Positions 2,988 to 64,000 of a stretch of 64,000 nucleotides of DNA are shown here, one piece after another. Position numbers and translations under genes: made by a program. The notes beneath the pieces are model-generated. The model searched no databases and had not been told where the DNA came from. It saw only the letters and a program-made list of their open reading frames with translations. Location of the stretch: assembly GCA_964016885.1 (NCBI GenBank), contig OZ024747.1:28582001-28646000 (forward strand), given 5' to 3'. The stretch comes from Eledone cirrhosa (taxonomy: Eukaryota). Position 1 is the stretch's first letter. Every line of letters begins with the position of its first letter.

Positions 2988-3305
2988 ATGTAAGTATGCA
3001 TGTATACGTACATACATATATGTATACAGACGTACAGTAGCATGCACATATATATATAAATTCAGGCTGTTCAGTTTGTTTACAAACGAACAAAGCGACG
3101 TTATAATAAGCGCCGCTAAACTGATACGTGCATGTATGTATGTGTACCTGTATGGATATGTATGTATATATGTATATATATATATGTGCATGCTACTGTA
3201 CGTCTGTATACATATATGTATGTATGTATACATGCATACTTACATTTAAGTAAGTGCCATACTAAGAGTGAGAAATGAAATTTCGTTTTCATTTTGTTTC
3301 AATTT
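2988..3305 (+). mobile_element. Diverged partial relative of the 422-bp HHR repeat with a 5' inverted duplication
   Basis: Shares the blocks tttgtttacaaac, ttataataa, atacgtgcat, tactgtacgtc.gtatacatatatgtatgta and tactaagagtg.gaaatgaaat with the array unit. 2988-3058 is the reverse complement of 3175-3245. Confidence 0.85.
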
Positions 3306-3323
3306 ATATATATATATATATAT

Positions 3324-3871
<548 letters not shown>

Positions 3872-3974
3872 TATATATATATATATACACATATATATAT
3901 ATATATACACATATATATATATATATACACATATATATATATATATACACATATATATATATATATATATACAC

Positions 3975-4183
<209 letters not shown>

Positions 4184-4196
4184 TATATATATATAT

Positions 4197-4265
<69 letters not shown>

Positions 4266-4356
4266 TATATATATATATATACACACACATATATATATAT
4301 ATATATATACACACACATATATATATATATATACACACACATATATATATATATAT

Positions 4357-4395
<39 letters not shown>

Positions 4396-4446
4396 TATAT
4401 ATATATATATATATACACACACATATATATATATATATATACACAC

Positions 4447-4555
<109 letters not shown>

Positions 4556-4628
4556 CATATATATATATATATACACATATATATATATATATATATACAC
4601 ATATATATATATATATATACACATACAC

Positions 4629-4659
<31 letters not shown>

Positions 4660-4676
4660 TATATATACACATACAC

Positions 4677-4707
<31 letters not shown>

Positions 4708-4736
4708 TATATATACACATATATATATATATATAT

Positions 4737-4783
<47 letters not shown>

Positions 4784-4790
4784 TATATAT

Positions 4791-4825
<35 letters not shown>

Positions 4826-4828
<3 letters not shown>

Positions 4829-7800
4829 CGTTCCTTTGTCAGTGTTGAACAAACGAGCAACGGTGGTTGCTAGACACTACGGCTTAATACGGGATGTTTG
4901 TTTACAAACACACCGAGCATTATAATAAATGTTCGGTGAATCCATACGTGCATATATATATGTGTGCATGTATGTATATATATATATACATACTACTGTA
5001 CGTCGGTATACATATATGTATGTACGTGTACATACTTATATTTAAGTAACAGCCGTACTAAGAGTGGGAAATGAAATATCGTTTCATTTTTTCCGTTTAT
5101 CGTTTTCGGTGCACCCGGCCGATTAACCCACTCGATATGCATATTGGGCTACTCAGCCGTTAATATGCATAAGGTAAGTATATACGTTCAACAATCTGGC
5201 AGGAAGGTATACGTTGCTGACGATAGCTAACAAGCTTGAAACTAGTACAGCGTTCCTTTGTCAGTGTTGAACAAACGAGCAACGGTGGTTGCTAGACACT
5301 ACGGCTTAATACGGGATGTTTGTTTACAAACACACCGAGCATTATAATAAATGTTCGGTGAATCCATACGTGCATATATATATGTGTGCATGTATGTATA
5401 TATATATATACATACTACTGTACGTCGGTATACATATATGTATGTACGTGTACATACTTATATTTAAGTAACAGCTGTACTAAGAGTGGGAAATGAAATA
5501 TCGTTTCATTTTTTCCGTTTATCGTTTTCGGTGCACCCGGCCGATTAACCCACTCGATATGCATATTGGGCTACTCAGCCGTTAATATGCATAAGGTAAG
5601 TATATACGTTCAACAATCTGGCAGGAAGGTATACGTTGCTGACGATAGCTAACAAGCTTGAAACTAGTACAGCGTTCCTTTGTCAGTGTTGAACAAACGA
5701 GCAACGGTGGTTGCTAGACACTACGGCTTAATACGGGATGTTTGTTTACAAACACACCGAGCATTATAATAAATGTTCGGTGAATCCATACGTGCATATA
5801 TATATGTGTGCATGTATGTATATATATATATACATACTACTGTACGTCGGTATACATATATGTATGTACGTGTACATACTTATATTTAAGTAACAGCCGT
5901 ACTAAGAGTGGGAAATGAAATATCGTTTCATTTTTTCCGTTTATCGTTTTCGGTGCACCCGGCCGATTAACCCACTCGATATGCATATTGGGCTACTCAG
6001 CCGTTAATATGCATAAGGTAAGTATATACGTTCAACAATCTGGCAGGAAGGTATACGTTGCTGACGATAGCTAACAAGCTTGAAACTAGTACAGCGTTCC
6101 TTTGTCAGTGTTGAACAAACGAGCAACGGTGGTTGCTAGACACTACGGCTTAATACGGGATGTTTGTTTACAAACACACCGAGCATTATAATAAATGTTC
6201 GGTGAATCCATACGTGCATATATATATGTGTGCATGTATGTATATATATATATACATACTACTGTACGTCGGTATACATATATGTATGTACGTGTACATA
6301 CTTATATTTAAGTAACAGCCGTACTAAGAGTGGGAAATGAAATATCGTTTCATTTTTTCCGTTTATCGTTTTCGGTGCACCCGGCCGATTAACCCACTCG
6401 ATATGCATATTGGGCTACTCAGCCGTTAATATGCATAAGGTAAGTATATACGTTCAACAATCTGGCAGGAAGGTATACGTTGCTGACGATAGCTAACAAG
6501 CTTGAAACTAGTACAGCGTTCCTTTGTCAGTGTTGAACAAACGAGCAACGGTGGTTGCTAGACACTACGGCTTAATACGGGATGTTTGTTTACAAACACA
6601 CCGAGCATTATAATAAATGTTCGGTGAATCCATACGTGCATATATATATGTGTGCATGTATGTATATATATATATACATACTACTGTACGTCGGTATACA
6701 TATATGTATGTACGTGTACATACTTATATTTAAGTAACAGCCGTACTAAGAGTGGGAAATGAAATATCGTTTCATTTTTTCCGTTTATCGTTTTCGGTGC
6801 ACCCGGCCGATTAACCCACTCGATATGCATATTGGGCTACTCAGCCGTTAATATGCATAAGGTAAGTATATACGTTCAACAATCTGGCAGGAAGGTATAC
6901 GTTGCTGACGATAGCTAACAAGCTTGAAACTAGTACAGCGTTCCTTTGTCAGTGTTGAACAAACGAGCAACGGTGGTTGCTAGACACTACGGCTTAATAC
7001 GGGATGTTTGTTTACAAACACACCGAGCATTATAATAAATGTTCGGTGAATCCATACGTGCATATATATATGTGTGCATGTATGTATATATATATATACA
7101 TACTACTGTACGTCGGTATACATATATGTATGTACGTGTACATACTTATATTTAAGTAACAGCCGTACTAAGAGTGGGAAATGAAATATCGTTTCATTTT
7201 TTCCGTTTATCGTTTTCGGTGCACCCGGCCGATTAACCCACTCGATATGCATATTGGGCTACTCAGCCGTTAATATGCATAAGGTAAGTATATACGTTCA
7301 ACAATCTGGCAGGAAGGTATACGTTGCTGACGATAGCTAACAAGCTTGAAACTAGTACAGCGTTCCTTTGTCAGTGTTGAACAAACGAGCAACGGTGGTT
7401 GCTAGACACTACGGCTTAATACGGGATGTTTGTTTACAAACACACCGAGCATTATAATAAATGTTCGGTGAATCCATACGTGCATATATATATGTGTGCA
7501 TGTATGTATATATATATATACATACTACTGTACGTCGGTATACATATATGTATGTACGTGTACATACTTATATTTAAGTAACAGCCGTACTAAGAGTGGG
7601 AAATGAAATATCGTTTCATTTTTTCCGTTTATCGTTTTCGGTGCACCCGGCCGATTAACCCACTCGATATGCATATTGGGCTACTCAGCCGTTAATATGC
7701 ATAAGGTAAGTATATACGTTCAACAATCTGGCAGGAAGGTATACGTTGCTGACGATAGCTAACAAGCTTGAAACTAGTACAGCGTTCCTTTGTCAGTGTT

Positions 7801-8417
7801 GAACAAACGAGCAACGGTGGTTGCTAGACACTACGGCTTAATACGGGATGTTTGTTTACAAACACACCGAGCATTATAATAAATGTTCGGTGAATCCATA
7901 CGTGCATATATATATGTGTGCATGTATGTATATATATATATACATACTACTGTACGTCGGTATACATATATGTATGTACGTGTACATACTTATATTTAAG
8001 TAACAGCCGTACTAAGAGTGGGAAATGAAATATCGTTTCATTTTTTCCGTTTATCGTTTTCGGTGCACCCGGCCGATTAACCCACTCGATATGCATATTG
8101 GGCTACTCAGCCGTTAATATGCATAAGGTAAGTATATACGTTCAACAATCTGGCAGGAAGGTATACGTTGCTGACGATAGCTAACAAGCTTGAAACTAGT
8201 ACAGCGTTCCTTTGTCAGTGTTGAACAAACGAGCAACGGTGGTTGCTAGACACTACGGCTTAATACGGGATGTTTGTTTACAAACACACCGAGCATTATA
8301 ATAAATGTTCGGTGAATCCATACGTGCATATATATATGTGTGCATGTATGTATATATATATATACATACTACTGTACGTCGGTATACATATATGTATGTA
8401 CGTGTACATACTTATAT
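4826..8417 (+). repeat. Tandem array of a 422-bp unit (8 full copies + 216 bp), retrozyme-like, with one HHR per junction
   Basis: tacagcgttcc recurs at 4824, 5246, 5668, 6090, 6512, 6934, 7356, 7778 and 8200. Only one difference between units was noticed (C>T at 5476). The array is embedded in (TA)n. Confidence 0.97.
5186..5272 (+). ncRNA. Type I hammerhead ribozyme with extended stem I (first of 8 copies, period 422)
   Basis: acgttg-CTGACGA(5217-5223)-tagct aaca agctt-GAAA(5238-5241)-ctag-TA^cagcgt, with cleavage predicted after 5247. Stem I extends through aagg/cctt, ctggca/tgtcag and gttcaaca/tgttgaac. Confidence 0.93.
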
Positions 8418-8453
8418 ATACACATATATATATATATACACATATATATATAT

Positions 8454-8490
<37 letters not shown>

Positions 8491-8503
8491 TATATATATA
8501 TAT

Positions 8504-10798
8504 ATATTATAATGAAATGACAGGAGGCTGGATTTGTGTAAATCCTTGAAAGGTTTAAATGTAATAATGAACAGCGGCATGGGACTGAATATATCTAACC
8601 ACCATTCGGACTGTGGCTACTCGGTGTTTTTCGCCTACCGCCAACCTGGCCCATGGCTACTTCCCTCTCAGAATATTCGGACCTCGACGAAACTCTACGG
8701 ATTATACCATAACATGTATTGTACTGCACTGTATCAACTGAATTCGCTACCCTATACTTCTGGGCATGTATAACTCCCACTGAATTCCCAGACTCGAACA
8801 CACACTGACTCCATTTCCACATCTATATGCATTATCTGACTGTAACTTGAACTATATTGTATTTCTCCTGTGTCTTGAACTATCCATTTACCCGACTCTT
8901 GTTTGTTTATTTATATCTTTATATATTTATTTGCTGTATTAATGCTTTTCCACATATTCTACCTCTATACATCCATGTACTTTTTACTTCCCTTATTCGG
9001 ACTTTTACTCGCGTGTACCCTTAGCACACGACACTGGAATGTCTCCCCCTGGGAACATTAATACTGCAACCTGAACTATATTGTACTTCTACTATGTCTT
9101 GTTTTCTCCATCTTACTCCAACACCACTCTTGTTGGTTTATTTACATATTTATATTTATATATTGATATATTTATATATTTATACCTTTGCTTTATCAAT
9201 GTGCTCTTCCACGTATTCCTCTTCTATGTATCCATGTATTTCTACTCCTCCTATTGGGACTTTTGCTCACTTGTCCCCATTAGCACACGACACTAGAATG
9301 TCTCCCCCTGAGAACAAAAATAAATATTACCCGACTATATCCCGTACTCTACATCCCACTAGGGTAAATTATAGATCTACATAATACAATTAACGTCTCT
9401 TCAAAAAAGACTCTCTTTAATTAAACCCCGCAACCCAAAACCTTATATAAGTTTTTTTTAAATGTTTGATTTTCAATTTTCTGTTTGTTCAATTCTCAAT
9501 CCTCTTACTCTTTAATTTTATAATGTTATTCTGAATTCCTTCAACTTCATCCTATAAATTTAAACAATATTTTAGAGTTCCAACTTTCTGTCGGACTGTT
9601 GGGTGGGTTTTAATGGCGGCGCACCCTGAGGCAAGGGCCTACCTTGAGTGCTTGGAAAAATAAATTTCCCCTTCTTTCGGTAAATGAAAATACTCGGAGT
9701 GGCTTAATTCGTCCTGGAGCGCGGCCGGTTTTTAACCGCCACATAGTACCTTTAAATTACAGACCAAATCAGAAATATTAGATATATCAACCTTAAAATG
9801 TTAAACTGTTTAACTTTAAATTTTCTAATTTCTTTGATATTAATTATTAATTTTTAACTTCATCCTATAAGTCTAAACAAAAACGTAACGTTTCAATCTT
9901 CTGCTCACACATTATAACACACTGACCCCCACTATATTCACCTCTGCTAAGATACGGGTCCCTGTGAAAATTTTCTCGCGCCACTCCTGGCCTGACTGTA
10001 GTCTGACATTAATATCGACCTTTCTTCCTCTTTCTTTCTATCTTCCTTCTTGTAGCCATCAACCCTTACTCTTCTACTTCTTCCTTTTCTTCCTTCTCTT
10101 CTCCCCTCTTTCTGTCTTCCTCCCGCAGACTTATCTTCCTTCTCCCTCTTTGTTCGCCCATATCTGACCGGTAGTAGTTGTTTAGATACGGGTCCCGTAG
10201 AATAAAAAAATTTCTTCGCGACAACCCTGGCCTGACTGTAATACCGTCCTTTCCTCCTCTTTCTTTCTGTCTTTCTTCTTATAGCTGACATTAACCCTGG
10301 CTTCTCCTCTTCTTCCTTCCCCCTTCTTCTCTCTCCTTCCTTTCTTTCTTTCTTTTGTCTTGTAACTTATGTTCCCATCCCTTTCTGTTTTCCTTTATCT
10401 GACCGGTAGTAGCACACTGTGAGCCTTAGCCACGTCACTCGAGGGCGACCGGCTAAGATAGAGGGTGCAAGATAGCGGTCGCCCTCGGGTCCTCGATTTT
10501 TAGCCCCATGGATTTTATCTATTACATTCACGTATTATATTTTAAATACCTGATGATATCACCGGATTCACACGAAACCCGGTCATTGAAATGATCATAG
10601 TATAATAAACCTTTCAAGGATTTACACAAATCCAGCCTCCTATCATTTCATTATAATATTTAACTCCGTAATAGCACCACCAACTACAAAAACAAAGACG
10701 GTTGAACTGCTTTACGTTGAGTACTCTCTATATTATTACATTACGATTGACCATACGGAATAGACCAGCTCTATACAGTGGTGAACCACAAACCTGAA
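8504..10798 (+). mobile_element. 5'-truncated PLE 3' region (~2.3 kb) with an inverted pLTR piece, internal duplications and an HHR
   Basis: 8504-8557 is the reverse complement of 10606-10659. Diverged direct repeats lie at ~8845-9055/9065-9315 and ~9948-10175/10183-10412. There is a GC hairpin at ~10440-10488 and an HHR at 10546-10603. Confidence 0.75.
10546..10603 (+). ncRNA. Type I hammerhead ribozyme
   Basis: atac-CTGATGA-tatcaccgg...ccggtcatt-GAAA-tgatca-TA^gtat. Stem III is the palindrome ATGATCAT. Confidence 0.85.
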
Positions 10799-13053: not shown

Positions 13054-15817
13054 TTTCTGATCCGAGCACTTTTTAACATTCCACTTGAATCAGCTTTGAC
13101 AAATGTTGGATTGAAACAACCCTGGAAAATAAATAAAACACAAAATAAGTAAAAACAAACAGTAAAACATTAAAACAAAAAATTAAAGAAATGGATTTAG
13201 ACTTTCATAATCTCTCTCCTTTTAATCTCTTGATCATCACCACTATCGTCATAACAAGCACTACAACAACCATCACCACCACTACAACCACCATCACCAC
13301 CACCATAACCACCACCACCAAAACTGCTGCCACTATCATCACCACCATTATCATTATCAGGAAATAAACATGTTTTACAATATGTTGGTTTGTGACAGTG
13401 TAAATGCTAATTTGTTCCAAAGTGAAATAACAGCAGGTAGAAGCTGAGATGAAATTTAGTGAGAGTAACTGAAAATCTTTGTTGCTATCTAGATAAGAAA
13501 AGTGACAATGAGAGCAAATTCTATGTATGTGCAGACACCATCTAAGATCAAAGTTCACAAACAGCATTTAACAAAAAATATGTTTGTATATTTTGGTTTG
13601 AAATTAACAGGATGCAAACTAAAATGACTTATAAATATAATTATTGTAGATTAGCAAAGTCATTAGAGGGGCAGATAAAATGCTTAGCAGTATTTGTTCT
13701 TGCTCTTTCCTTTCTAACTTCAAATCCTGCCAAGATAAACTTTCAACCTTCCGAGGTCAATAAAATAAAGTATCAGTAAAGCCCAGGTGTTGCTTTAATC
13801 AACTTTTCCCTTCTCCAAATAAACTAACCTTGAGCCAAAATTTGAAACAATATAGGGTGGTGTACTGGCCGAGTCATTAAGGCATCAGACGGTATTTATT
13901 CCAGCTCTTTACATTCTGAGTTCAAATCCCATTGAGGTCAATTTTGCCTCTCATCCTTTCAAGGTCAATAAAATAAAATACCAGTAAAGTACTGAAGTCG
14001 ATAAAATAAAGTACCAGTAAACTACTGGGGCCGATATTATCAGCTTCCCTTTCCACAAATTGCTGGCCTTGTGCCTAAACCGTTATTATTAATACTTTTC
14101 TTCTTGATTTAAAAAAATGTTAAAAATATTCTAAAATTTTGAGGGATTTAGTAATAACTAACTTTCTCATTAAGTTGATGTTTGGAACATAACTTAACGA
14201 AGGATCTTACATAAAATTATGATGGAAAACTTTTAAATAAATATCACTGAGAAGTGCAATTGCACAAGGTCAGCTTTTGTCACTTCATCCCAGGTCTTCC
14301 TGGGTCTTCCTATGGAGTAGGAAGACCCAGGTAGGAAGACCCAGGTAAGCTGACCTTGTGCAATTCACCTCTCAAAGACAATGACACATGATTGAGATTT
14401 TTGGTGTTATGCCGTAATAGAGAAGACATGCCTTCCCATGTGCAGGGACTCAAACATACATCTAGTAGGCATCTTTTAACCACTATACCCACTTCCATAC
14501 ATGCCCCAACACCCACCCACTTCTGTCCACACCACCCCTACACTGTAAAGTTATGTTGGTATCACAAGAAAAAAAGCACCCAGTCCACACTGTAAAGTAA
14601 ATGTGTAGGTATCACGACAAAAAGCACCCAGCGCACATGGTAAAGTGGTTATGTAGGATCACGTCAAAAATCATCCAGCACACACTGTAAATGTGGTTAG
14701 AGTTAGGGATGGCATCCAGCTGTAGAAGCCTAGCCAGAAACAGTTCTGTATGTTTTATGCCTCTAATGGGACAACCTGTCTAACCCATGCTAGCATGGAA
14801 AATGGATGTTAAATGATGATGATGATGATAATAAACACTTTAGAACTTTGTGTTGTAGAGTCAGGGGCTCTTTCAGACAGTTTAGTGTCAAAAAGGGTTA
14901 ATCAAGGTGTTGATATGGCTGTGTGGTTAAGAATTTCACAGTGAGATGGAACCTAAAACCTTATGTTTGTGAAGCAAAATTCTTCAGCACACAGCCATAC
15001 TAACACTTATCTTAACTCTTTTGATATCAAACCACTAGGAACTGCCCCTGGATCTATGATACAAAACTGATAGCTTTAGAGTGTTTATATTTATCTAAAA
15101 ACTTTCCATCGTAATATTAAATAAAACCCTTTAAGTTGCATTCCAAACACTAACTTAATAATGAGAAAGACAGTTATGTTACAAAATTATTTTTAAATCA
15201 TATACAGTGTCTTTCATTAGAAATATGGCAATGAAAAGGTTAATATAAATTGAAAATATATTTTCTAATAATAACTATAGTCATCCCATCATATTAAGTT
15301 GATATGAAACAAAAGAGAATAACCAAATTCAAACACTATATACAACATTTCTTACATTTTTATTCTAGATGTTTCCTTTTATTCTATAACCTTGACAAAT
15401 TGTAAAACACTTATTGAAGTAATGTATTGGGACATTTGTTGAAGTGTTGGAAATCAGCTTCAAAATGACACAAGGCACAGAGAACAAAACACCCACAAAT
15501 GAATTTAATAAAATAATACTGAAATTGTGAAAACAATAGTAATAATGTGTATTGTAGTGTGTACAAAGAATTCAGTAAAAAAAAACAACTTTTTTATAAA
15601 AGTTTATGAAATGTAAGCTGTAAAAATGCTGAAGTTAATATAAAACAAGAAAATATATATATCACTGCATATCTATGGTTGTGGTTTCATTAGGAATATA
15701 TCAATTTGATGAATCATGCATACACATAAACAGACACGCATTATATAAACATGAATATATAAATAATTATATGCATGAACACGTCATCATCATCATTGTT
15801 GATGGTATATAAAGTCA

Positions 15818-25398: not shown

Positions 25399-28320
25399 TC
25401 ATCATCATCATCATCATTATCATTTTACGTCCGCTTTTCCCTGCTTGCAAGGGTGGGACGGGTCTTATTCAGCACAGCATCTCTCCACTCGTCACGGTCC
25501 CTCGTCATCTCCACCGTGAGCTTCAATGATCTGAGGTCTGTTCTCACCACCTCCGCCCATGTTTTTCGTGGTCTACCTCTACCACGTCTTCCTTCAACTG
25601 GCATTTCCTGGCACTTCTTCACTCATCGGTCATCCTCCATGCGCATCACATGTCCATACCACCTCAGTCTCCTCTCCCGTACACTACATTCTATCCCTCT
25701 CAGACACAGTTTCTCTCTCAACACATTTATGCTGGGTCGTTCACGCACATTTACACTGCACATCCAACGGAGCATGCTTGCCTCATTTCTCTCCAGCCGT
25801 CGCATATCTTCTGCGGTAGCTGCCCATGTCTCACTACCATGCAGCATCGCGCTCCTCACACAGGCATCATACAACCGGCCTTTCGTACGCAGGGAGAAAC
25901 CCTTCTTCGTCAACAGAGGAAGCAGCTCCCTAAACTTCTTCCAACCCGTCCTTATTCTAGATACTATGGCCTCGGAACACCCTCCTCCCATGCTAATCTG
26001 ATCTCCTAGGTACCGGAAGCTATCCACCACTTCTATAGCGCCCTCTCGCATTTGAAAAATGTGTCTATCAGTGCGACTTCTACTGTCTAATTTCCCTGTA
26101 CATCTACTGCATACATAGTTCTCCCTACCTGTTAGTTTGCCTGCTATCCCGCTACATCTCTTGTGTACCCAGGACCTACATTGTGTGCATTTTATAGAAT
26201 TTATGCCAGTTCCTTTTCTGCATATCGAACATGGCCATTTCCCTGACGGAATCAGGGTTTTGTCCTCTTTTCTACTCATCAACACTTTTGTCTTAGCTAG
26301 ATTTACTCTCAGTCCTCTTGCTTCCAACTGCTGTTTCCATAGCCGGAATTTATTCTCTAGCTCCTCTACTGATTCTGCCATAAGAGCCAGATCGTCAGCA
26401 TAGAGAAGTTCCCATGGACAGCCAGTCTTAAACTCCTCTGTTATGGCTTGGAGGACTATAATGAACAAGAGCGGGCTGAGGACCGAACCCTGATGTACTC
26501 CTACTTGTATCTGGAATTCCTCACTAAACTCCATTCCTACCCTGACTTTACTGAGAGTACCTCTGTACAAAGTTTGCACTGTCCTTACAAGCCATTCCTC
26601 AACACCCAGCTTCCTTAGGGACCACCAGATGACAGATCGGGGTACCCTATCAAAGGCCTTCTCTAGGTCAACAAAGGCTAAGTATAGTGGCTTATTCTTC
26701 TCTAAGAACCTCTCTTGCATTTGTCTCACCAAGAAGAGGGCATCTGTTGTACTCTTCCCAGGCACAAAACCAAACTGCATCTCATCTAGTTTGACCCTTT
26801 CTCTAATTAGTTGTGCTAAAATCCTTTCTGCCACTTTCATAACCTGATCTATCAGTTTTATACCCCTATAATTGCTCCTCTCCAAAGCATCCCCTTTACC
26901 TTTGTAGCAATTTATGAGAATACTGCTGCACCAGTCTTTGGGTATGACACCACCATATATAGCCTGATTGATTATGCGTGCAACCAGTTTAGTGCCTACG
27001 TCCCCTGATGCCTTCAGCATCTCAGCAACTATTCCCGATGGTCCGGCCGCCTTACCATTTTTCATTTCCCTAATCGCCTCTTGGACCCTATATTCGTCAA
27101 TCTCAATAGCTGGTCCCTCTGTCGGATCTACCAAGGGTAATTTCTCTCTCTCCCATTCGTTCTCCACATTCATCAGTCTCTCATAATGACATTTCCAGGC
27201 CTCCTTTTTCTGGTCATTCGTGACACTAAGTACACCGGCATCATCCCGGACACATTTATCACCAACAACATCCTGATTTGCATTGACACACTGCCTTGCA
27301 ATGTGGAACACCGCACGCCTCTGATCTTCCCGTCGCAGAACATTGGCAAACCTCCTACTCTCTGCCTCCCTGCGTGCTAAGTACACCTGACGTCTAGCTT
27401 CTCTCTTAGTGGCTGTATATTCTTCCCTACTCCCACCCTTATTCCAAGCCTTCCATGCTAGTCTTTTGTCTCTAATAGCCTTATCTACACTGCTGTTCCA
27501 CCACCAGGTCACTCTCTGTCTGGTTGGAGCTCTGCTCCAGCCACAGGTTTCATCAGTAGCCTTCAGCAAGTTGTCACGTAAGAACTTCCAGTTATTATCT
27601 ATGTCATACGTCTCTAAATCGTCTTCTTTTTCGTCATATACATCTTGAAGGGCTTTCCTAAATTTGAATTTTAGTGAAAGGTCTTTTAGCTTCCAGACCT
27701 TTCTTCTCCACACCTTCCTATATGTCTCATTCCATCTCTTGCTTACTGAGATATCACTAACAACTAACCTATGCTGTGGGGTACATTCTTCCCCAGGGTA
27801 TGCCTTGGTATTAGACACTATCTGCCTGTCCCGCTGCCTAACTAGCAGGAAGTCAATCTGGCTTATGTGCTCACCAGATTTGTAGGTTATTAGGTGATTG
27901 GCAGGTTTCTGGAAGTTTGTGTTGCAAATAGTCAATGTACTTGCATCACAAAATTCAAGAAGTCTCACTCCTTCTTCATTTCTTGTACCCCAGTGTAACC
28001 ATCCTGGAGCTGTCCAACATGACCATTGAAGTCTCCTGCTAGCATAACGATGTCTCCGTCCTCTGTCATTGTGGTTGTTTGCAAAAGTTGCTCATAAAAG
28101 CAGTCTTTCTCATCTTTGCCTAGGCCTGCTTGGGGAGCATAGACCGAGATGATTGTCAGTAGTCTCCTACCTACAACTAATCTAAGCTTAATTATTCGAT
28201 TACTAACTCGAACTACCTCTATTGTCTTATTGATCCATTTCTCAGCCAGGAAAATGCCTACTCCCCCAAACCCATCATCCTTACCTACCCAGAATAGCTT
28301 ATAGCTAAGACGCTTGCCTT
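25399..28320 (-). mobile_element. Young 5'-truncated RTE-clade LINE (partial APE + RT + PHD-like Cys cluster), (TGA)n tail
   Basis: 781-aa ORF 25623-27968 with QFGF, FVDLEKAFD, GVHQGSVLSP and LLYADD. A single in-frame TGA at 25623 is followed by in-frame GRGRPRKTW to 25425. Confidence 0.95.
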
Positions 28321-55045: not shown

Positions 55046-56485
55046 CTGAAATCACAATTTTAGTCTTTTAGTGACATAGAGAATACATGTGTGTAAACCT
55101 AAATGTAGTAAAAGTAAAGGTGACCAGAGGCTACAGTGTTGGTGGTTGAATGGAGACAATATAGGGTTTCAGAGTATTGGCTGGTGCCATGATAAAAATA
55201 CACCCAGTACACTGTAAAATGGTAGTGTTGCTACAACAAAAAACACACTCGGTAACACTATAAAGTGATAGTGGTGGTGCTATGAAAAAATACACCTGGT
55301 ACATCTTGTAAAATGATTTGGCGTTAGGAAGGGATGTAAAATGAAGAAGATAAGTGACATTGAGAATACATACACGTGTGTAAACATAGTTGTTTAGACG
55401 TCATAGTGAAAACAAGTGTGTATCAGCATAAATATAATCATTTGGTGAAATAAAGAATGTAGATGTGTATGTAAACAAAGACAGATGTGTAAACAGTCAT
55501 GTAGTGACATAGAGGATAAATGTGTGTATAAACATAGATATAGTATGCCCCCATCCCCCTCCCACTGTAAAGTGGTCGTATAGGTGTCACGGCAAAAATC
55601 ACCCAGTCCACACTGTAAAGTGGTCGTGTAGGTGCCACGGTAAAAAAGCACCCAATACTCATTGTAAATGAGGTTGGTGTTAGGAAGGGCATCCAGCTGT
55701 AGAAATCAAGCCAAAATCAGTTCCGTATGAGCAAGACATGGTCACCTGACCTGGCATTGCCCACAACAAGGCAACCTGTCTGACCCATGCTAGCATGGAA
55801 GAATGGACGTAAAACGGTGATGATGATAGTAAAGGTATGTAGATTAGTGGCTAGCCCACATTGGTAAGGTCATGTATTTAATTCCAGGACTGAGCAGCAC
55901 AGTCCTTGAGAAAGACAATTTATTTCATCTTACTTCAGTCCACACAGTTGTAATTCAAAGGACCAGCCTTGTCATTACTGCATCTCCCTGAGAATTACAT
56001 GAAAGGTATGTGTGTTTGTGAAATACTCAGTCACTTACACAGTAATTTTACGAGCAGGCACTTCTGTTATTCCAACAATGGGAATGCTCATAGTTGGAAC
56101 TGATGGAGGTGCAACAGAGCCATTTAGTAACACACAAAATATGTGTGTGTTAACATAGTCATCTGCTCTTGTTGGATCTCTGTCAGTTCTGCTGCTGAGT
56201 ATTCCAATTATTTGATCAATGGAACAGCCTGCTTATGAAATTAATGTGCAAGTGGCTGAGCATTCCACTGATATGTATACCCTTAACTCAGGGACATTCA
56301 ACATGACAGTGTAACAAGGTCAATTCTTGGAATCACAAGTACAACACATTTTTTTCAGCTGAATGGACTGGAGCAATATGAAATAAATTTTGTAACATAG
56401 AACTTGGAGTTATTTGGTATGAAATGGGTTAATAGTTTTATTAGTTATAGAGGAGACTATAAACAATACAAGACATAGTCCTTAC

Positions 56486-61077: not shown

Positions 61078-61656
61078 GAGGGGTCAGATGCAGTGTGTAG
61101 GAGAGGAGATTGCCTTGGTATGGACATATGATGCATATGAAGGATGACAGCTGTATAAAAAGGTGCAAAGCGCTAAAAAAAAAATACGTCCGAATACCCT
61201 ACACCTAGATATACTTCCCCAATTTCCCCATGCATATCCCCTACCCAAATCCCCAATCCACACTATAAAGAGGTCATCTTGATACCACTGCAATGAGCGC
61301 CTAGTCCACACTGTAATGTGGTCGTGTAGGTATCACAACAAAAAGCACCCAGCCCACATTGTAAAGTGGCCGTGTAGATGTCACAGCAAAAAGCACCTAG
61401 TCTGCACTGTAAAGTGGTCATGTAGATGTCAGGATAAAAAGCACCCAGTATACACTGTAAATGTGGTTGGCATTAGGAAGGGCATCCAACCATATAGGAA
61501 CCTAGCTAAAATCAGTTCTGTGAGTAAAACACAGTCCTCTGATCTGGCTTGTCTCACAATGGGACAGCTTGTCAAACCCATATGCAAGTGTGGGAAATGG
61601 ACGTTAAATGATGATAATATATACAGAGAGAGAGAAGGCTAGATGGAGATACTTAC

Positions 61657-61895: not shown

Positions 61896-64000
61896 AATGA
61901 AATTATTGTGTAAAGTGCTCAGGTGCACTACAACTCGTCAATATAGTACATAGAATAATACACAAATGCCAGGGAAGTACATGTTTGTATGTGTTAGCTG
62001 TAGTGTTGGCGGATCTCGGGAAGCATGGAGGCCTTAAAGGATGCAGTGTCTCGACAGCTAACAACTGATGCAGGTAGTTTGTTCCATGCTTCAGCAACTC
62101 TGAGCGTGAAAAAATGTTTCCGAAAGTCATGGGAACTGTGCTGTTTTCTTACTTTGTGGGCATGTCCACGTGTGTTAGACACATGGAAATCGAAAAGGCA
62201 CTCAGGGTTGTTGTTGGCAACATGGTTAACAATTTTGTGGGTGTTTACCAAGTCAGTTGCCAGGCGTCGGAGCTTCAATGAATCCATGCCCAGGGAAGCA
62301 AGGCGCTCAGAGTATGGTAGATGCCTGATGGAGGGTATTCGCTTGGTTGCATGTCTCTGAACAGTTTCCAGGCGGTCAATGTCCTGAGCAAGATAGGGGT
62401 TCCAGACTGGTGATGCAAATTCTAAGTGTGGTCGCACCATAGCTGTATACAGCCTTAAATAGATATCTGGAGAGCGGCTGACAAAGGTCTTGCTGAGTGA
62501 TGCTAAGACACCCTCGGCCCTCTTGACAATTTTAGAGACGTGCCTCGTCCAACGCAAATCGCTGCTGACCGTCATGCCCAGGTCACGTTCACAGGAAGAC
62601 TTCTTGATATTAGTGCTGTGGAGGGAGTATGTGGACGCTGGGTTTTTACTCCCAAAATGCATGGTGGTGCACTTGTCCACAGCTAGCTTGAGTTGCCAGT
62701 CTGAGATCCACTGTTGCATTGTGTCCAGGTCAGACTGCAAGCAAGATCTATAGTGTTCAGGATCTGTCCTTTTTATCTCAAGGTACAGCTTGATGTCGTC
62801 TGCGTACTTTAGTACTGTGGCATTCCTTAAGTTGGCATCTATGTCATTAATATATGCCACAAACAAAAGGGGGCCAAGAACAGATCCCTGAGGTACACCA
62901 GATGACATCTCATATGGTGAGGAATGCTGTCCCAGAACCGTGACTACCTCTCTTCGACTGAGAATGAAGGACTTCAACCAGTTAAAAAGATCATCCTTCA
63001 CACCCATTGCAGAGAGTTTTGCCATAAGCCTTTTCTGTGGCACAGAATTGAAGGCCTTCGCAAAGTCAAGATAAACAACATCCACCCATGAGCCACCATC
63101 AGTGATCCAGGTGATGTCCTCAAGAAACTCTATAAGTTGATCACAGCAGCTGGAGTTGGGGATAAATCCAAATTGCGAGGGCCGGATAAGACTGTGAGAG
63201 CTCCAGAAGTTCCAAAGTGTTTCTCTGACACAGGATTCCATCAGTTTGGCGATGCAACTAGTAAGACTGACTGGACGATAGTTCACAGGTGATGTGCGGT
63301 CACCCTTTTTGAACAGAGGAATGACACTGGCAGTTTTCCACTGTTCTGGAGTAGCACTGTTGTTCAGACAGAATTGGAAGAAGCGTGATAACTGGTATAG
63401 AAGGAAGTACCCACCACGTTTAAGAAGCAGGTACGTAACACCATCAAGACCAGGAGAGGCATGGTTGCGTTTATTTTTTAGGTGACGTCGCAGCATTGCA
63501 GGTGTAAATTCCATGGTTGTAATAGAGTCCGGTGTCATAGGTGGTGGAGATGGTACACTCTGGTCTTCAATGGTGAAAATGCCTGCATAGCATTCAGCAA
63601 TGAGCTCTGCGCATTCCTTGGGGTCGTCAGTAACCTGGCTTGTGTTGGGATTGCGAAGAGGACCAACTGGAGAGTGAGGCCTCTGCTTTGAGTGAACATA
63701 CTTCCAGAACACCTTACTGTCAGGGCTGGTTGCTATGCGCTGCTCAAATTGAAGCACTGCCTTTTTTGTCACCTGTTTGAGGTGGTTGGACGATCTATTT
63801 CGCCTCTTCCTATTAATGTCTGATTTGTGAAGTTTGTACTCACGTTCAGCATTGCGCCGTTCTTTTCTGGCAAGACGGACTGCTGCAGTCTCCCAAATTG
63901 CGCTTTTAGGATGTTTTTTCCGCTTACGTGGCACCGATGCTGCACATGCTGTCCATATTGAGCTCAGGATGTTCTGGAGTACAGTGTTGACATCTCCAGA
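61879..64000 (-). mobile_element. CR1-clade LINE, uninterrupted RT ORF, short 3' UTR and (TTA)n tail, inside a UQCC1 intron
   Basis: 646-aa ORF 61994-63934 with NYRPVSLTS, YLDFAKAF, GVPQGSVLGP, YADD and VRPHLEFASPVWNPY. The element continues past the window end. Confidence 0.95.

Follow-up and report, generated by a model that had tools for sequence, protein, structure and literature searches.

Arrays of a 422-bp hammerhead retrozyme in Eledone cirrhosa end at two fixed sites within (TA)n microsatellites, an anatomy that points to a Penelope-like element as the inserting agent

The metazoan retrozymes without long terminal repeats (non-LTR retrozymes) are non-coding, dispersed tandem repeats having units of 150-450 bp, a GC content below 50%, one type I hammerhead ribozyme per unit and a highly self-paired monomer; their cleavage and circular RNAs have been demonstrated, and Penelope-like elements (PLEs) are present in the same genomes (PMC7229834). 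A dependence of retrozymes on PLEs has been proposed (PMC7229834) and argued from phylogeny (10.64898/2026.07.22.740005), while the insertion of retrozymes and the formation of the PLE tail and inverted repeats are described as open (PMC8557442, 10.64898/2026.07.22.740005). The endonuclease-bearing (EN+) PLEs, for their part, possess two fixed 3' ends with a so-called tail, along with 5' truncation, an inverted truncated partner, tandem copies, AT-rich or (TA)n targets and a hammerhead in the repeat (anole Poseidon, PMC11167929; PMC8557442, PMC3846280). In vitro, two internal start sites of the reverse transcriptase (RT) bound that tail, cutting and extension affect both strands of the target, and the protein is predicted to form a dimer (PMC11167929); genomic copies are inverted and 5'-truncated, lie in (TA)n targets, and often carry the tail at one end only (PMC8557442). 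Here we describe an array of 422-bp units in a 64,000-nucleotide stretch of the Eledone cirrhosa genome (assembly GCA_964016885.1, contig OZ024747.1, positions 28,582,001 to 28,646,000 of the forward strand; hereafter the window, to which all unprefixed coordinates refer). At the level of sequence anatomy the array shares the traits of the retrozymes listed above, and its insertions end in the manner of the EN+ PLEs. We consider it probable that the array is a non-autonomous non-LTR hammerhead retrozyme inserted in trans by a PLE.

Tandem Repeats Finder returned a period of 422, 8.5 copies and 99% matches at 4824-8417. When the units are cut from 4826, seven of the eight full units are identical, unit 2 differs once (C229T), and the ninth copy agrees over 216 bases, which results bear out the array as it had been described in an earlier model reading of the letters alone (the sequence-only reading). 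That reading had also placed a complete type I hammerhead at each junction, and we found the motif at 8 of 8 junctions, with predicted cuts after 5247, 5669, 6091, 6513, 6935, 7357, 7779 and 8201. The parts of the insertion and of its target are the following:

3672..4825, no strand: (TA)n microsatellite, left part of the target (tandem-repeat scan)
4824..4827, plus strand: 5' junction, where unit positions 421-422 have TA in common with the (TA)n flank (microhomology)
4826..8417, plus strand: retrozyme array of eight 422-bp units and a further 216 bp; one-armed, A type
4944..5029, plus strand: long TA-rich hairpin, unit 119-204
5033..5048, plus strand: small hairpin of 6 pairs, unit 208-223, with site A in its loop (98.6% of cells paired, 12 units)
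5042..5100, plus strand: 59-nt tail between sites A and B, unit 217-275
5098-5100, plus strand: site B, TAT, unit 273-275 (35 of 68 arms end at 265-275)
5211..5253, plus strand: first complete type I hammerhead, repeated every 422 bp as far as the cut after 8201
8413..8417, plus strand: 3' terminus at unit 212-216 (site A), whose TATAT fits the (TA)n target; 31 of the 68 arms terminate at 215-219
8418..8511, no strand: (TA)n microsatellite, right part of the target (tandem-repeat scan)

The first base past the microsatellite is also the first base past a predicted cut, a boundary that is uncertain by about 2 nt either way because the TA preceding the cut fits both unit and flank, and because the CA that follows also occurs in interruptions of the flank. 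The GC content is 0.37-0.39 over 5001-8000, hence below 50%, and the 422-bp unit falls within the range of 150-450 bp. Coding capacity is lacking: there is no open reading frame (ORF) of 400 aa inside the array, the unit is too short for an RT, and the ORF joining RT and GIY-YIG domains that characterizes an autonomous PLE is absent from it. Judged by these features the array is a member of the non-LTR retrozymes, and new to that group.

In this genome of 3.0 Gb a search with the unit, for which 39 of 1217 candidates were scored, gave 337 matches on many contigs, most of them 100% identical, and a 36-nt stretch of the hammerhead was matched exactly 1830 times. The counts of ends given below come from the window and 36 other loci (designated by L and a number), taken from the best-scoring matches listed. 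Since the units at these loci are almost all identical to that of the window, the family must have been active very recently; the idea that the array is a recent retro-insertion rather than an ordinary satellite accordingly holds for a dispersed young family with a hammerhead in every unit. An assembly artefact, which the sequence-only reading had named as a hazard, is rejected at the level of the family by the 36 other loci with their different flanks and single-unit variants. Pieces of the unit also appear in sequencing runs X6 and X7, from two further studies (320 bases without a difference, and one opposite-strand joint); runs X1 and X2, guessed to be RNA, contain only short low-complexity pieces matching the unit, which speak neither for nor against expression. 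An older subfamily, about 78% alike, is dispersed as well.

The evidence for the mode of insertion lies in the 3' ends. Among 68 arms, 31 end at site A (unit 215-219) and 35 at site B (unit 265-275), one ends elsewhere or is broken, and one runs into an N gap; both sites finish in TAT or TATAT and run into (TA)n, and the 3' end of the window array, at unit 216, is one of these two fixed termini. Most loci are two-armed, with the 3' ends pointing outward and the 5' ends meeting inside. The 37 loci hold 28 two-armed sets, of which 26 combine A with B, one has an unreadable end and one a broken end, so that all 26 readable sets are of one kind, an outcome with a probability of 0.5^26 = 1.5e-8 if the arms chose independently; no purely young set among the 28 is A+A or B+B. 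Even the seemingly one-armed L035 and L066 retain an opposite arm, 17 and 14 nt long respectively, and in each it is of the complementary type. The longer arm may be either one (medians of 1220 and 1244 bp, p=0.50), and arms extend through up to 16.6 units. At the joints between arms, 16 of 27 overlap by 0-8 nt and the other 11 hold inserts of 2-40 nt. The A+B pattern, as read from these sequences, implies that the two DNA ends would be assigned to different start sites.

In non-LTR retrozymes a target-site duplication, where there is one, is longer than 4 bp; the present insertions lie in microsatellites, within which such a duplication is unreadable, and at L035 similar compound repeats stand on both sides. 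In L038, L051, L057 and L063 the interruptions in the (TA)n flanks follow a higher-order pattern that is shared by the left and the right side of the insertion, and that might be either a pre-existing compound repeat or the product of reiterative copying at the junction. A possible pairing of a retrozyme arm in L049 with an 8-nt end of the 938-aa PLE family introduced below was set aside, a fold-back of the target explaining it equally well.

The window itself contains one copy of the older subfamily:

2990..3307, no strand: older relative, about 74% identical, two-armed and bordered by (TA)n at either end, the minus arm terminating at site A, the plus arm at B

Read by eye, 17 of 20 clear two-armed cases from the older subfamilies are A+B, two are A+A and one is B+B, a count from which unreadable, single-armed or broken cases were left out (L113, L116-L120, L122, L123, L127, L128, L130, L132-L135, L137, L138, L140, L144 and the second set in L131). 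In L041:4219-7109 one insertion changes, close to its joint, from units of the young subfamily to sequence of the old one, a chimera that may be taken as a sign of template switching between co-expressed subfamilies.

As to a helper, the genome holds 10597 GIY-YIG candidates, and sampled ORFs carry RT plus GIY-YIG domains, intact ones of 775 and 938 aa included. The 775-aa family comprises dozens of intact frames of 98-99% identity, has a hammerhead of its own, and shows a CxxxxCxxC motif ahead of the nuclease such as has been described for the Neptune and Nematis clades (PMC8557442); in each of the 9 two-armed insertions read, which lie in (TA)n, one end is short and the other longer by about 55 nt. 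At L163:3094-7457 an autonomous PLE with two arms is lodged in the TA hairpin of an older unit of the retrozyme. Because a Penelope-like copy lies within that tract, we regard the TA-rich hairpin of the unit, whose length differs among subfamilies, as a (TA)n target in its own right: the retrozyme carries its helper's target. Both young PLE families (L159:1092-4753 and L097:4309-7740, both on the minus strand) have an upstream frame, 476 codons between stops in L159, whose overlap with the RT frame is about 90 nt and which the protein of each family seems to need; the RT frame lacks an early ATG. This arrangement suggests a programmed -1 frameshift in an EN+ PLE.

The ends, the targets, the pairing and the conservation of the units are patterns in the sequence, and from them we infer cleavage, circles, an enzyme and an order of steps. 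Transcripts of an array would be cut by their hammerheads, paired via the palindromic helix III, into 422-nt monomers, which a host ligase would close into circles. A PLE protein, with its telomerase-like RT and GIY-YIG domains, would bind around unit 205-280 and, to judge from the junctions, cut both strands of a (TA)n tract; a match of 3-5 nt would then anneal each free DNA 3' end to the RNA, at 212-216 (site A) for one end and at 273-275 (site B) for its counterpart, so that site A at 8413..8417 would represent the start point of reverse transcription in the window. The cDNA would grow over as many as 16 units, reading past each cut site, and the two cDNAs would be joined at arbitrary points, by short overlaps or inserts, into back-to-back arms: with both 3' ends of the break extended by cDNA, the arms must point outward, as seen. 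Were one arm tiny or lost, the long cDNA might be caught on a TA of the target, leaving a one-armed array like that of the window. As for the template, one arm (L055/L110) has C396T in 13 units in a row, and both arms of L052 carry a 4-nt insertion in every unit but one; such runs favor the repeated copying of one monomer, and therefore a circle. In its most specific form—a dimeric telomerase-like RT that holds both (TA)n ends, is obliged by telomerase-like pairing over 3-5 nt to use A for one and B for the other, and rolls many times round a circle made by the ribozyme—we regard the model as having an even chance of being correct.

The hammerhead agrees with the definition of the metazoan type I (CUGANGA, GAAA and NUH, with helix I of 6 bp, helix II of 4 bp, and helix III of 1-2 bp with a palindromic loop). 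At 5211-5253 the 5' strand of helix I (5211-5216) is followed by CUGACGA from 5217, a 4-bp helix II, GAAA, a palindromic ACUAGU helix III, the GUA with its cut after 5247, and the 3' strand of helix I (5248-5253). In metazoan motifs with a helix III of 1-2 bp, the palindromic loop favors cleavage by pairs of motifs (PMC4209133); here the closure of helix III in a monomer is computed to cost about 5.4 kcal/mol and two palindromes to pair at -6.8 kcal/mol. In helix I, unit positions 386-391 pair with 1-6 and the helix extends into an 18-pair stem, with a predicted internal loop at 383-385; the monomer therefore closes on itself. The linear unit folds at -150.4 kcal/mol (z -7.4, with 0 of 100 shuffles as good) and the circular one at -146.0 (60 shuffles, -99.3 +/- 6.1; opposite strand, -119.1), an excess owed in part to the self-complementary TA-rich hairpin. 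Matches of that hairpin to Rfam families of the microRNA type fell far below the family thresholds and were dismissed. Across 12 natural units from the young and older subfamilies the core is constant except for N7 (C/U) and single decayed copies, and one helix I pair reads U-G, G-U or U-A among subfamilies about 78% alike. Nine of 147 predicted pairs are changed on both sides, 87.8% of cells being paired; the covariation score was reached by 0 of 500 shuffles, a control that ignores the relatedness of the units. These changes lend support, and not proof, to a ribozyme under selection.

An alternative scheme retains the same PLE insertion from A and B but takes an uncleaved linear multimer as template, the hammerhead being slow or acting elsewhere and no circle being formed. 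It would fit the missing pile-up of 5' ends at the cut as well as circles would; the weak helix III and the U-U at the base of helix II, the in vitro dispensability of cleavage for the anole PLE, and the inactive Xenopus dimers (all taken up below) speak in its favor, and the variant switches inside arms (L053, L055) could come from a source array. The same scheme, however, requires a variant to pass one unit and then re-multiply so as to fill 13 units or both arms, and arrays could not grow longer by the copying of linear templates alone; two-sided changes preserve helix I, by which the monomer closes on itself, and coral, mussel and axolotl retrozymes of like anatomy occur as circles (PMC7229834). 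We hold a purely linear template to be unlikely, though a serious rival to the circle. If, alternatively, the first cDNA folded back and primed its own second strand, with nuclease resolution producing the unequal ends, one priming event would suffice. Such a fold-back was proposed earlier for PLEs (PMC3846280, PMC8557442) and would suit a few near-palindromic joints (L040 290/298, L058 20/17, L062 390/374, L065 345/358), the resemblance of some joint inserts to short local copies, the weak correlation of arm lengths (Spearman 0.43, p=0.03), and the matching flanks on both sides of A+A cases; most joints, on the other hand, link unrelated unit positions, the units beside the joint of L055 differ between the arms so that neither copies the other, A and B ends both show microhomology with the target, and the two PLE ends are RT start sites in vitro (PMC11167929). 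We accordingly judge it quite improbable.

The growth of an inserted monomer in place, in the manner of a minisatellite, by unequal exchange or slippage, has a precedent in the local amplification suggested in the preprint 10.64898/2026.07.22.740005 and could account for runs of shared variants (L053, L055), but it leaves unexplained why arrays on many contigs are identical and of non-integer length, with fixed 3' and random 5' ends, and why both inverted arms often hold several units; its probability is, in our estimation, very low. The proposal that came with the sequence-only reading, that the RT ran to the 5' end of a self-cleaved RNA and that insertions would thus begin at the cut, deserves almost no credence as a rule. 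At the window locus it is true within 2 nt, and that single event could be such; the position thus stands within its 2-nt uncertainty, while the meaning attached to it finds no support in the family. Only one of the 68 arms, that of the window, has its start within 2 nt of the cut, where 0.8 would be expected, and arm starts do not depart from uniform (Kolmogorov–Smirnov p=0.50). Throughout the genome 9 instances of (TA)4 lead into the unit start, as against 16, 14 and 14 that lead into three further TA-C sites of the unit; besides the window 8 loci begin at the cut, and 7 of these hold no further hammerhead, and the window arm itself passes 8 cut sites. The genome-wide tabulation of 5' ends had been named beforehand as the check, with random ends counting against the idea, and the ends proved to be scattered. 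Given that one-armed insertions often start at a TA of the unit (L034, L046, L053, the window), the start of the window array is best read as microhomology with the target that fell on the cut by chance.

Against a self-cleaving retrozyme inserted by a PLE through obligate A+B priming several observations must be set. No Rfam hammerhead family reaches its gathering score in the window, and none is among 76 matches up to E=10 in 5000-6000, so that the Rfam check proposed along with the sequence-only reading left the motif unscored. The 111-nt junction alone does not fold significantly better than shuffles (z -1.6, 14 of 200). With Rfam silent and the junction fold not above shuffles, the case for a ribozyme rests on anatomy plus conservation, and the count of doubly changed pairs was reached by 29 of 500 shuffles. 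At its base helix II has a U-U mismatch in place of the usual G10.1-C11.1 pair, and helix III consists of one pair only, on which grounds the motif may have little activity; of the 9 predicted dimers of Xenopus retrozymes, 8 remained uncleaved in vitro (10.64898/2026.07.22.740005), and insertion by the anole PLE did not need hammerhead cleavage (PMC11167929). The pairing has exceptions, L136 and L041:8837-9720 being A+A, L139 B+B, and the young/old chimera in L041 B+B, and the loci sampled are the best-scoring ones with at least one full unit, hence not random. In L055 the arms carry different variants and a variant also changes within an arm; templates can therefore be exchanged, and one circle serving both ends is not general. 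The 59-nt tail exceeds the 30-40 bp described for PLEs, and the start sites share 3-5 nt with the target, in contrast to the non-homologous site at which the anole element started. Finally, blastn found no similarity to the unit in three copies of the 775-aa family, and only nested retrozyme copies and chance-level matches among 45 loci around GIY-YIG matches, these 45 + 3 loci being a small part of the 10597 candidates; as no sampled family resembles the unit, the class of the helper, a putative PLE, is deduced from the insertion anatomy.

The two weakening features of the motif have separate counterparts in amphibians: HHR_Amex1 likewise has a single-pair helix III with a palindromic tetraloop, HHR_Amex2 likewise a U-U mismatch at the base of helix II, and both work best as dimers (PMC7229834), whereas the motif predicted here combines the two. 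Fixed 3' ends, (TA)n targeting and paired arms are features of the present family not met in the accessible text of PMC7229834, from which the words "inverted" and "target site" are absent and in which PLEs are named as candidate helpers only. Unlike the EN+ PLEs, the retrozyme has no RT or nuclease ORF and extends up to 16 units per arm; in the PLE papers the tail is optional or often one-ended, and the strands show no difference of start site in vitro. The preprint on vertebrate retrozymes, Xenopus included (Li, Clavereau, Pollet 2026; 10.64898/2026.07.22.740005), reaches the same conclusion of a PLE dependence from co-occurrence and similarity to the PLE pseudo-LTR (pLTR), while our argument is drawn from the insertion anatomy, no pLTR similarity having been found in the 45 + 3 loci sampled. 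Neither PLE-type ends on a retrozyme nor a counted rule of one end of each type was found in the literature searched, where supplements or subscription papers may hold them; the terms "tail", "inverted" and "initiation" gave no match in the text supplements of PMC11167929, whose supplementary figures may bear on novelty.

A comparison with L1 is also instructive. In twin priming, the RNA is primed from either end of the broken target, an event that gives rise to an inverted part; the poly(A) end serves the first primer, and the position taken by the second varies. Both sites of the retrozyme, by contrast, are fixed and internal, and neither arm dominates.

Apart from the array, the window holds at 265-672 a two-armed palindromic insertion of another family in (TA)n, with unequal arms and its own type I hammerhead (579 on the plus strand, 456 on the minus), which motif recurs in L102 and L108. 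A third two-armed palindrome in (TA)n occupies 3321-3671, its right arm about 70 bp longer than its left, and 78-bp tandem copies related to it flank L033. Between TA repeats at 742-825, on the minus strand, lies a tRNA-Leu-like sequence (Rfam tRNA, 53 bits) whose anticodon loop reads GAG, an anticodon unusual in animals; it is perhaps a pseudogene or a retrocopy. Open frames of the long interspersed element (LINE) type with an RVT_1 domain lie at 25626-28091 and 61997-64000, both on the minus strand, the first also with a PHD finger. A unit of 47-49 bp recurs at 2301-2407, 14540-14699, 55563-55668 and 61306-61467, as a dispersed family resembling short interspersed elements (SINE-like). A 48-bp repeat in the window may be akin to one that is present in cephalopods.

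The element itself will not surprise specialists, and it is the pattern of its insertion that seems worth following: the family is very young, with dozens of near-identical insertions whose ends can be counted, and the pairing of one end of each kind, in the retrozyme as in an active autonomous PLE, can be put sharply to the test in an in vitro assay already established (PMC11167929), for which a 422-nt RNA and an intact candidate protein are available. If an obligate A/B dimer working on a circle were indeed responsible, one mechanism would account for the tail and the inverted pLTR of PLEs as well as for the tandem arrays, the rolling-circle retrotransposition of animal retrozymes would gain direct support, and a stretch of about 70 nt would constitute a cis-element for RNA-templated insertion at (TA)n.

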